This document shows positions 51,001 to 54,000 of a stretch of 64,000 bases of DNA, piece by piece (the stretch's first letter is position 1; each line of letters starts with the position of its first letter). Origin of the DNA: Escherichia coli (GTDB lineage: Bacteria > Pseudomonadota > Gammaproteobacteria > Enterobacterales > Enterobacteriaceae); assembly GCF_002854065.1 (NCBI RefSeq), contig NZ_CP024154.1. One strand, given 5' to 3'. A program made the position numbers.

Positions 51001-54000
51001 GATATACCAAAAAAACCTGCCAGCATACAGAGGACGATCAGCAGGGGGATCCGTCCGATGTTCAGCCAGTCCAGCGCCTCTCCTGTCAGACCCTCCGGTA
51101 AATCAGGTGTATCCATAGCTGAAGAGAGAGAGTGTCCGCAGAGCAGGGCGATAAGTTCAGCGATACCAGTAAGCAGAACAAAAGTCAGGGCTGCCAGATA
51201 GGGTGCGTTATACGCGGTAAGTAACGTCAGTGTCATTTTTCCTCCTGTGGCAGGTCAGTCAAACAACATTATGGCGTGAAGCTTCCGCTTCTTTAATTGT
51301 CAGAAGAAGCATATCGTCAGTCATCAGAAGACAAGGGGATGTCTGCAGGAGGGGATGATAACAACAGAAGCCTCACGCCGGAATGCGCTTTATGACAACC
51401 GGAGAGGACGGATAATCAAAAATGGGACATCCACATCAGCAAACCGCGATTTGCGAAAAAAAGTCAGCGGAGAGTGGCTGCCGTTGTGGCTGTCCCGGTA
51501 TTTCAGTGTAACAGGTGATTGCTGTGATCTATGCCCCATTCGGCTTTCGGTAAAGCTGAATGCCCCACATGAAGAATGCGTGACAGCATGTTTCTGCCGC
51601 TGCCGTTCAGGCTGCATTCGCGTCCGTGCGCGAGTATAAAACCTTCATCCCGGAATATCTCTTCAACCTCAGACGTGTTGATGGTGGCCGGATGGATTAA
51701 TGAAAATGCCACCGGTCTGATCATTCTGCCCGTGGTGGAAAAGGTGTCCCCGGTGCTGTTCAGCTGCAGGATATGACGTTTCCCGGTCTGTGCGCGGGAA
51801 AGTGTCTCACTCAGTAACTGGTCATTCCATGCGCACGTGCCAATCTGCCATCCCAGACTCCTGCACGTGGCAAGAGCCGAGCGGAAGCGGTACAGGTCGT
51901 ATAATGCTGCGTTATTGCCACTTTCCAGCAGTGATTTCAGGGTGTTTGCTACCGGTATGTCTGAATTGGTGGCCAGCAGTTTTCGCAGGGTAGTGAACTC
52001 TTCAGCCATTCCTCTGAACTCGCGCATCTGACGGGCAGTGTCAAGCCAGTTCAGCAGGTAACGCCGGCGACGCCGTTCGTTGTTTATGTTGTCCGGGGCG
52101 GTGGAGAGTGCTTCGAGCATATTCTCCAGTAACAGAATGACAGGGTTTTCCTGGGATAGAATGGTCATAAAGGCGTCCTGAAAAAATGCCCGACAGCCGC
52201 TCTCCGTACACCCTCAGGTGTCACCGGTGCCGGGCATTGTGGAAACAGAAGGGAAAAAAATCCCGGCCATAAAGGCCGGGAAAAGTCGTCAAATTAAGAC
52301 AGCAATTTTCATGTCAACGCTCCGTCATCAGATACCAGGTGCAGGAGCAGGGCGATCCTCGACTCCGGCAGAGGCTGTGCATCAAGCCGGAGGAGGTACT
52401 GGTAACGCGCTTTTGTCAGCCAGAGGGTGGAGGCAGCATCCAGCTCCTCCCTGGCTGCCGGATTGAGCGCAGGATCCGGGTACACTTTCATCAAAGACTG
52501 AACGATATCCTCCCTGACGGTTTTGATTTCACCGGCCATTTTCACGAAGTCCAGAAAGGCACTGTGACGGCGAAGGTGAGTGAAGCTGTGGCTTTCGGGG
52601 TCTGCTTTCAGGAAAAAGTAACCGGGAAACACGGCGTGTATATGTCGACGGTAACCACAGACTTTATCCGTGCGGCGGACCTTTTTCAGTATCAGGGGTG
52701 TCCAGGGAAGGACGTGTTGTTCGGAAAGCCAGGAAAAGAGATGTTCGCGGTTTTTGCCGGCAGGGATGTACTGTGCCAGATACCAGTTGCGTTGATGTAA
52801 TTCACTGATATTCAAAATCCGGAACGCTCCGCGAAAATCGATCCCCGCAGGGGGGCTTCGATGTTGTTGTGAACGGCGAATACATAAAGCATGTGTCGGA
52901 AACAGCGGCTGACCCACGTTCAGCCTGGCCTGCAGTTCTGACAGGCACATGATTTACGCACTCTTGTAAGCCTTGTGGACGGTTTCGAGGCGGGCGAAAA
53001 CCGACAACTCCTGCAAACAGGATTAATGGCTGGCAAATATATTACATGAGGATGCATATGTGGCAAGAGCGAAGATAAGCAGTTGAATAGATCGTTTTAT
53101 TTGATAAATCAGCATATTATGCTGAATTGTGTGCGGTGTCTGGTGGATTAGATCGTTTAAAAATTTTAGGCGATCTCTTCTACTAAAAATGATGAAAAAC
53201 ACAGCATAAAAGATCGTTTGCGGAATTGTTCATTTTTTTGACACAGTTCAAAAAAACGACGCTTTTTAGGTGGTTAATGAGAGGCCAGGTAAATCAGAGA
53301 AATTGTGTCGGCTTTTCAAAGCGGTGGAAAAGGGGTATATTGCGGATCGTTATGCAGTGACTTTTGGGATCCTCACGATCCGGAAAGTCAGAAAACGGCA
53401 GGATGCGCCATAAGGCATTCAGGATGTATGGCAGAAACGACGGCTGTTTGCCGGGGCCGGAAGGCTGAAAAAAGTTTCAGAAGACCATAAAGGAAAACCC
53501 CCACTATCTTTCGATGAACTTTGGCGGGCTCAAGAAAGATAGTGGGGGCCTCACAGAATACGGGATAAGTATATATGAAACCGTGTCAGAGATTCAACCC
53601 CTTGCAGTGCATTAACGCACGGCATTCTGTGCCCGCCATAAGCGACAGCTTGTGGCGGCCCTGAACCAGACCTCATTTACTGAAAGCACATACCGTCAGG
53701 TAAAGAACCCGAATCCAGTCTTCACACCCCGTGAAGATGCCGGAACGCTGAAGTTCTGCGAAAAACTGATGGAAAAGGCCGTGGGCTTCACCTCCCGTTT
53801 TGATTTTGCCGCGCATGTGGCGTATGCACGTTCGCGCGGCCTGCGCCGGCGTATGCCGCCAGTGCTGCGCCGAAGGGCGATTGATGCGCTGCTGCAGGGG
53901 CTGTGTTTCCACTATGACCCGCTGGCCAACCGCGTGCAGTGCTCCATCACCACGCTGGCCATTGAGTGCGGACTGGCGACGGAGTCTGAGGCCGGGAAAC

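Follow-up and report, generated by a model that had tools for sequence, protein, structure and literature searches.

A predicted antisense RNA, leader peptide and pseudoknot control region for repA in an IncK2/Z-type replicon of Escherichia coli

We analysed the region around the replication initiator gene repA in a 64,000-nucleotide (nt) stretch of Escherichia coli DNA (RefSeq assembly GCF_002854065.1, contig NZ_CP024154.1), referred to here as the window, to which all positions refer. The analyses indicated that this region very likely controls the replication of an I-complex plasmid belonging to the IncK2/Z clade, by means of an antisense RNA, a leader peptide and a pseudoknot that would jointly gate the translation of repA (Table 1). 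An earlier note on this DNA had likened the region to the Inc RNA-repY-repZ mechanism of IncI and IncB plasmids, and several lines of evidence supported that reading. The Rfam model PK-repZ (RF01087), which is Rfam's pseudoknot of the repZ gene regulatory region, matched 53490-53639 over its full length (model positions 1-150 of 150) with 162.5 bits (E = 1e-37), well above the gathering score of 44, and an Rfam scan of the whole window found this element only once. The PK-repBA model scored 31.5 bits on the region, under its cut-off of 45 bits. The 201-nt control region folded far better than its shuffled versions (z = -5.4, none of 200 shuffles being equal). In addition, the control region was 79-88% identical to those of I-complex plasmids, and its leader reading frame and GGCGG/CCGCC pseudoknot core were conserved, as detailed below. 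All the sequence features of the model established for ColIb-P9 were found in the window at the expected spacing. The functional unit is wider than the 53498-53664 delimited by the earlier note, as there is a promoter-like site at 53313-53341 and the hairpin over the repA start reaches 53658.

The earlier note had left the exact group of the replicon within the IncFII/IncI family to be typed. Both repA identity and the MOB-suite typing of the nearest plasmids placed it in the IncK2/Z clade of the I-complex. In the scheme of PMC6361801 this clade is delimited by more than 95% nucleotide identity of repA (repZ) to the clade references, and the repA coding sequence of the window was 98.1% identical to that of pO111-CRL115 (IncZ) and 97.1% identical to that of pDV45 (IncK2). 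Searches of PLSDB showed the 1.9-kb replicon to be 98.8% identical to that of pSTEC1018_1 (CP061259) and 96.6% identical to those of pO111-CRL115 and pO26-CRL125, which are published IncZ plasmids whose replicon was described as comprising RepZ, RepY and an RNAI-encoding sequence (PMC3817090). The nearest complete plasmids were typed by MOB-suite as IncK2/Z, MOBP and MPF_I. IncK2/IncZ has already been treated as a distinct repA clade within the I-complex (PMC6361801, PMC10286972), and the same replicon structure has been described across the I-complex, IncZ included (PMC10286972, PMC3817090). Judged by these comparisons, the copy-number switch is intact and ordinary. Neither this switch nor the mosaicism of IncZ-type replicons discussed below, which combines I-complex and IncFII parts, is new: both have been described since the 1990s, and the window adds nothing to them mechanistically.

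To describe conservation we used an alignment of the window with 15 relatives (IncK2/Z, IncI1, IncI-gamma/K1 and an untyped Salmonella salamae plasmid); pairing and covariation were counted over its 13 distinct sequences, which are related to one another, such that the shuffle controls on these counts are indicative only. The stem-loop with a TTGGCG loop reported in the earlier note was recovered as stem-loop I, with a 15-base-pair (bp) lower stem formed by CCCCCACTATCTTTC and GAAAGATAGTGGGGG and with TTGGCG in its apical region (53521-53526) in both the minimum free energy (MFE) and the centroid folds. Across the 13 sequences 94.9% of its cells were paired, compensatory changes were present at 5 of its 15 pairs, and the loop heptamer TTGGCGG was invariant.

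On the opposite strand, the complement of stem-loop I folded into a 19-bp hairpin followed by UUUUCCUUU (z = -6.9), with CGCCAA, the complement of the UUGGCG target, in its loop. We infer that the antisense RNA (Inc RNA or RNAI) starts near 53561 and terminates after the hairpin and the UUUUCCUUU run near 53490; its length would be close to the approximately 70 nt reported for I-complex Inc RNA/RNAI (PMC3817090). A consensus scan placed a promoter for this RNA just upstream of it, and both hexamers of the promoter were unchanged in all aligned relatives. The -35 hexamer falls within the leader open reading frame (ORF), and the -10 hexamer lies directly upstream of the leader ATG, overlapping the leader ribosome-binding region. 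At the level of sequence, the region encodes a countertranscript of about 70 nt that is complementary to stem-loop I and has its own predicted promoter and terminator.

The 29-codon leader ORF of the earlier note, the equivalent of RepY, RepB or RLP, was confirmed as running from ATG at 53575 to TGA at 53662-53664, with a Shine-Dalgarno-like GGGAUAAG at 53562-53569. Its conservation, which was a point on which the earlier note could have failed, was complete with respect to frame, start and stop. The same ATG and TGA were present in 15 of 15 relatives, and the length was 29 codons in all except CP055049, in which an in-frame insertion of 6 nt extends the leader to 31 codons. The earlier note had also described the leader stop as overlapping the repA GTG. 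The two ORFs do overlap, by 13 nt (in 15 of 15 relatives), but the TGA sits 7 nt past the GTG codon and the stop and start are not in physical contact. The middle of the leader peptide was variable and its C-terminal AISDSLW was fixed, because the codons for these residues overlap stem-loop III. Within the leader ORF, the well-paired stem-loop II contained one covarying pair (UA in 6 sequences, CG in 4 and UG in 3).

Stem-loop III, formed by CCGCCAUAAGC-GACA-GCUUGUGGCGG (11 bp, -20.7 kcal/mol), was present in both the MFE and the centroid folds. It buries the CGCC tract that the earlier note had correctly placed just before repA (53634-53637, 15 nt upstream of the GTG), together with a weak Shine-Dalgarno-like UAAG (53639-53642) and the repA GUG (53652-53654), a layout that agrees with the published description of ColIb-P9 (PMC4705826). 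A 24-nt block of this hairpin, CCGCCATAAGCGACAGCTTGTGGC, was invariant in all relatives. The pair 157-180 forms in 5 of the 13 sequences, all of the K2/Z clade, and with it the hairpin exceeds that of R64 by 2 bp (-20.7 versus -18.9 kcal/mol).

Complementarity between the loop of stem-loop I and the CGCC tract amounts to 5-7 bp, with the full 7 bp in the window lying between GGCGGGC and GCCCGCC. None of the 13 sequences departed from the five core pairs, GGCGG with CCGCC. At the sixth position there was AU in 6 sequences, GU in 3, GC in 2 and no pair in 2. The seventh is C-G in the window and A-U in pDV45, with both sides changed, and pEGY2 has a mismatched intermediate.

These observations bear on the possibility that the pseudoknot is dispensable in this hybrid replicon, such that regulation would need no more than an antisense RNA that inhibits translation of the leader, to which repA would simply be coupled in translation. 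The invariance of the core bases leaves their pairing without proof from covariation, and it could have another cause, as the loop GGCG would be needed anyway for antisense kissing and the CGCC for stem-loop III. We nevertheless consider a dispensable pseudoknot quite improbable, because pairing at the sixth position was kept in 11 of the 13 sequences through three different pair types, and because the seventh pair differs from that of pDV45 on both sides. Moreover, mutational work on ColIb-P9, pMU720 and IncL/M, as related in PMC4705826, shows dependence on the pseudoknot. The same paper links that dependence to a weak GUG start and a weak Shine-Dalgarno sequence, both of which are kept in the window.

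The initiator encoded downstream of this control region has a different ancestry. As the earlier note had stated, it is similar to IncFII RepA1: its 290-residue product matched TIGR03474 (incFII_RepA) with 566.8 bits against a cut-off of 446.9, and was 87% identical in amino-acid sequence to R100 RepA1 and 98.6% identical to the RepA of pO111-CRL115, with only about 24% identity over 101 residues to R64 RepZ. The same GTG start is annotated by PGAP in the near-identical CP061259. In blastn comparisons with reference loci, homology to the I-complex stopped at 53665, one base past the leader TGA, and resumed at 54890. Up to that stop, identity to the IncI-gamma/K1 plasmid pRM8426 was 88% from 53000 onwards, and identity to R64 and pEK204 was 79-82% from 53395 onwards. 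Homology to R100 (IncFII), whose repA sits at 88.8 kb in the R100 record, covered 53691-54917 at 86%, that is, RepA from approximately codon 14 and the region downstream of repA1. The latter is where CIS/oriR is expected, and it contains a DnaA box, TTATCCACA, at 54700-54708 that is conserved in the alignment with R100.

Based on these boundaries, it is highly probable that an IncFII-like RepA/origin cassette (approximately 53666-54892) was recombined between an I-complex control region and a downstream I-complex backbone. The joining of I-complex control to an initiator and origin of IncFII type is the architecture that defines the IncK2/Z clade. PMC5466382 cites Praszkier et al. (1991) for mosaicism, derived from recombination, between IncFII and the replicons of IncB, IncK and IncZ. 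The right junction (54892-54920) lies on a short motif, CACCTCCCAC...GCGGGCCCC, that is common to R100, R64 and pRM8426. This motif is a plausible crossover point, and it may have a function common to these replicons, for example as a priming signal.

An initiator and origin of IncFII type raise the question of whether control is also of the R1/R100 type, in which CopA blocks translation of Tap, repA is coupled to Tap alone, CopB acts on the repA promoter and there is no pseudoknot. The general layout of a UUGGCG stem-loop, a leader ORF and a GTG-initiated repA is common to the window and R100, and the CopA-like Rfam model produced a weak match on the antisense strand. That match, however, scored 40.5 bits, under the 60-bit cut-off, compared with the strong PK-repZ score given above. 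Homology to R100 begins only at 53691, inside repA, and the control region was poorly alignable with R100 but 79-88% identical to those of I-complex plasmids. The leader is RepY-like, with 29 residues versus the 24 of Tap. In addition, tblastn with R100 CopB and Tap found no homologue in the whole window (no E < 0.1), and none near repA. CopB/Tap control of the IncFII type is largely refuted by the sequence and was rejected, its probability being still lower than that of a dispensable pseudoknot. The least probable alternative is that the replicon is a non-functional remnant in a plasmid replicating from another origin, which could lie outside the 64-kb window. Against it, the promoters, both ORFs, the structures and the DnaA box are all intact, IncK2/Z is the sole typed replicon in the near-identical complete plasmids CP061259 and pDV45, and the 74-nt antisense region is identical in 8 independent plasmids.

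Several points nonetheless weigh against our assignment of the region as an I-complex antisense and pseudoknot switch, or limit how far it can be taken. The sub-threshold CopA-like match is one of them. The invariance of stem-loop III and of the 5-bp pseudoknot core makes covariation uninformative there, either way. The kinship of the 13 aligned sequences means that the shuffle controls overstate the support for the structures. The ends of the transcripts, the translation of the leader and the dependence on the pseudoknot are all read from homology. Lastly, the longer stem-loop III and the differing N-terminus of RepA could give the switch a quantitative behaviour different from that of ColIb-P9.

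With these points in mind, the working of the control region is most likely that of its homologues in ColIb-P9 and pMU720. In Asano's account of ColIb-P9 (PMC4705826), a stable hairpin hides the GUG start together with a weak Shine-Dalgarno sequence, and the arrival of a ribosome at the leader stop exposes the CGCC that directly precedes this Shine-Dalgarno sequence. Inc RNA is a competitor of the GGCG/CGCC pseudoknot: it kisses the same loop and later blocks the leader Shine-Dalgarno sequence. By analogy, a ribosome translating the leader in the window would terminate at the TGA and melt stem-loop III. The freed GCCCGCC would pair with GGCGGGC in the loop of stem-loop I, and the resulting pseudoknot would keep the repA initiation site open, such that the ribosome could reinitiate at the GUG. 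The antisense RNA, presumably constitutive, would kiss the same loop through its CGCCAA; it would first block the pseudoknot and then, by extended pairing, also the leader ribosome-binding site. More antisense RNA would mean less RepA synthesis and a lower copy number. A FinO/ProQ-domain protein of 200 residues is encoded 3.2 kb downstream (PF04352, 48 bits), and it is a possible candidate for an accessory part of this system as an antisense RNA chaperone similar to FopA/YafB. In pCol1B9, Inc-repZ pairing is accelerated approximately sevenfold by FopA, which binds Inc RNA (PMC7491321). The corresponding region next to the R64 replicon is disrupted by transposons.

Comparison with known systems showed the closest agreement with the IncZ/IncK2 replicons (pIE545, pO26-CRL125 and pO111-CRL115; pDV45), which have the same mosaic of I-complex RNAI, leader and pseudoknot with an IncFII-family RepA and origin. 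They also have the same flanking I-type backbone, in which NusG-like and traC genes lie upstream, and are typed as MOBP/MPF_I; the window differs from them in its distinct antisense RNA and stem-loop I allele. Zhang et al. noted two putative iterons in IncK2/Z plasmids versus three in other subgroups (PMC6361801). The inc-repY-repZ system of ColIb-P9/R64 (IncI1) and the RNAI-repB-repA system of pMU720 (IncB) share with the window the UUGGCG stem-loop I, the antisense RNA of about 70 nt, the 29-codon leader ending 13 nt inside the rep gene, the GUG within stem-loop III, the GGCG/CGCC pseudoknot and an identical 24-nt block of stem-loop III. They differ from it in their origin region and in having the shorter stem-loop III, and the 343-residue RepZ of ColIb-P9/R64 is unrelated at close range to the initiator of the window.

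The copA-copT-tap-repA1 system of IncFII R1/R100 resembles the window in its RepA, in the DnaA box-containing region downstream of repA, in the logic of an antisense RNA plus a leader and in the UUGGCG target loop. It has CopB and Tap, both of which the window lacks, and its control-region sequence could not be aligned with that of the window at high identity. Unlike R1/R100, the window has an organisation of the pseudoknot type with CGCC 15 nt from the GUG; the R1-type replicon is reported not to need a pseudoknot. Alignment of an R100 locus (4600-4870) with 53470-53720 of the window showed that the R100 leader region contains a tract, CTCGCT, whose bases complement the loop GGCGAG of R100 itself, one of the pairs being G-U. 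This tract aligns with CCCGCC of the window but is much further from the repA GTG, and it may be a vestige of a pseudoknot partner.

The antisense RNA is where the window departs from its closest relatives. The 74-nt antisense region had exact copies in 8 PLSDB plasmids and was 95.9% identical in 10 more. Compared with the IncK2 references KR905384-KR905390 its identity was 93.2%, and the 5 differences in 74 nt from IncK2 pDV45 are all in the upper stem or adjacent to the loop. The top loop, UUUGGCGGG, is common to the window and pDV45, and the lower stem is common to the window, R64 and pDV45; the IncZ reference stem-loop is much more divergent from that of the window than is that of IncK2. 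By sequence, the RNAI of the window is a separate allele and a minor variant within IncK2/Z. The RNAIs of IncK1 and IncK2 differ by only 5 nucleotides and yet the two are compatible (PMC10724649); because of this precedent, the incompatibility behaviour of the window allele is not readable from its sequence. We speculate, tentatively and with more doubt than confidence, that the allele represents a separate, unnamed incompatibility subgroup in IncK2/Z that would be compatible with the IncK2 and IncZ references, with the loop change at 53529 (A to C) compensated by that at 53631 (T to G).

Upstream of stem-loop I, the rep mRNA encoding the leader and repA probably starts from the promoter-like site at 53313-53341, with a predicted start near 53348. 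The core bases of this site (TTT..A and TATATT) were invariant in 12 I-complex sequences and its flanks diverged. Within the otherwise variable 5' leader of this mRNA, 53394-53413 (TGCGCCATAAGGCATTCAGG) formed an island that was nearly invariant in all I-complex relatives. A 9-mer, CGCCATAAG, is common to this island and to the 5' arm of stem-loop III (53634-53642). When 53348-53680 was folded in search of a long-range partner for the CGCCATAAG island, neither the MFE nor the centroid structure contained a consistent one.

Further upstream, three direct repeats ending in AGATCGTTT are present within 53082-53219 at an exact spacing of 61 bp (53082, 53143 and 53204). Just downstream of the putative rep promoter, at 53340-53390, there are two GATC-bearing inverted repeats, TTGCGGATCGT / ACGATCCGGAA and TGACTTTTGGGATC / GATCCGGAAAGTCA. 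The direct and inverted repeats together form a cluster of Dam sites. The inverted repeats are common to the aligned K1/K2/Z relatives and are not found in R64; the homology to pRM8426 extends as far as 53000. In R100, too, TGATCGTTTAAGG is present upstream of the copT stem-loop.

The genes and elements surrounding the replicon are included in Table 1. A type II toxin-antitoxin pair (55427-55986), consisting of a ribbon-helix-helix antitoxin and a ParE-family toxin, is immediately downstream of the origin, and pO111-CRL115 has an equivalent pair. A copy of IS1 (56094-56820) is inserted between this pair and the FinO-domain gene. On the other side, a NusG/RfaH-like gene is divergent from the replicon, and in the closest plasmid it is followed by a gene annotated as traC, an arrangement that we take to resemble the TraB/TraC transfer-gene regulators of I-complex plasmids. 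Two further RNA elements elsewhere in the window scored above their Rfam thresholds: a sok antitoxin RNA, indicating a hok/sok locus, and AgrB.

Table 1. Features of the repA replicon and other elements in the window (positions from the first letter of the 64,000-nt stretch).
Feature	Position	Strand	Basis or detail
AgrB	5679-5766	-	Rfam, 47.7 bits
sok antitoxin RNA	9255-9411	+	Rfam, 124.7 bits
NusG/RfaH-like protein, 213 residues	52309-52950	-	
Putative rep (leader and repA) mRNA promoter	53313-53341	+	Consensus scan; TTTTCA, 17-nt spacer, TATATT
Predicted antisense RNA gene (Inc RNA/RNAI), about 70 nt, both ends predicted	53490-53561	-	Complement of stem-loop I plus U-run
Stem-loop I, antisense target	53498-53548	+	Folds; PK-repZ structure line
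Proximal pseudoknot bases, GGCGGGC, loop of stem-loop I	53523-53529	+	Complementary to 53631-53637
Predicted antisense promoter	53568-53597	-	Consensus scan; TTGAAT 53597-53592, 18-nt spacer, TATACT 53573-53568
Leader peptide ORF, 29 codons	53575-53664	+	ORF list
Stem-loop II	53603-53624	+	Folds; 95.6% of cells paired
Distal pseudoknot bases, GCCCGCC, including CGCC	53631-53637	+	Complementary to 53523-53529
Stem-loop III	53633-53658	+	MFE and centroid folds
repA, IncFII-family initiator, GTG start	53652-54524	+	PF02387 (IncFII_repA); TIGR03474
IncFII-type region downstream of repA	54525-54900	+	Homologous to R100 repA1-downstream region
Ribbon-helix-helix antitoxin	55427-55711		PF01402
ParE-family toxin	55711-55986		PF05016
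IS1 InsB-like	56094-56597	-	DDE_Tnp_IS1
IS1 InsA-like ORF	56516-56791	-	
FinO/ProQ-domain protein	57745-58347	-	PF04352

Replicon typing puts this plasmid in IncK2/Z, and plasmids of this type matter epidemiologically because they carry resistance and virulence genes in E. coli. The RNAI allele, together with the apparently compensated seventh pair of the predicted pseudoknot, is of modest interest for the question of how a plasmid can acquire a new incompatibility specificity and still keep its activator pseudoknot intact. If the speculation of a separate subgroup is correct, the window would provide a natural case of co-evolution between the pseudoknot and antisense specificity.

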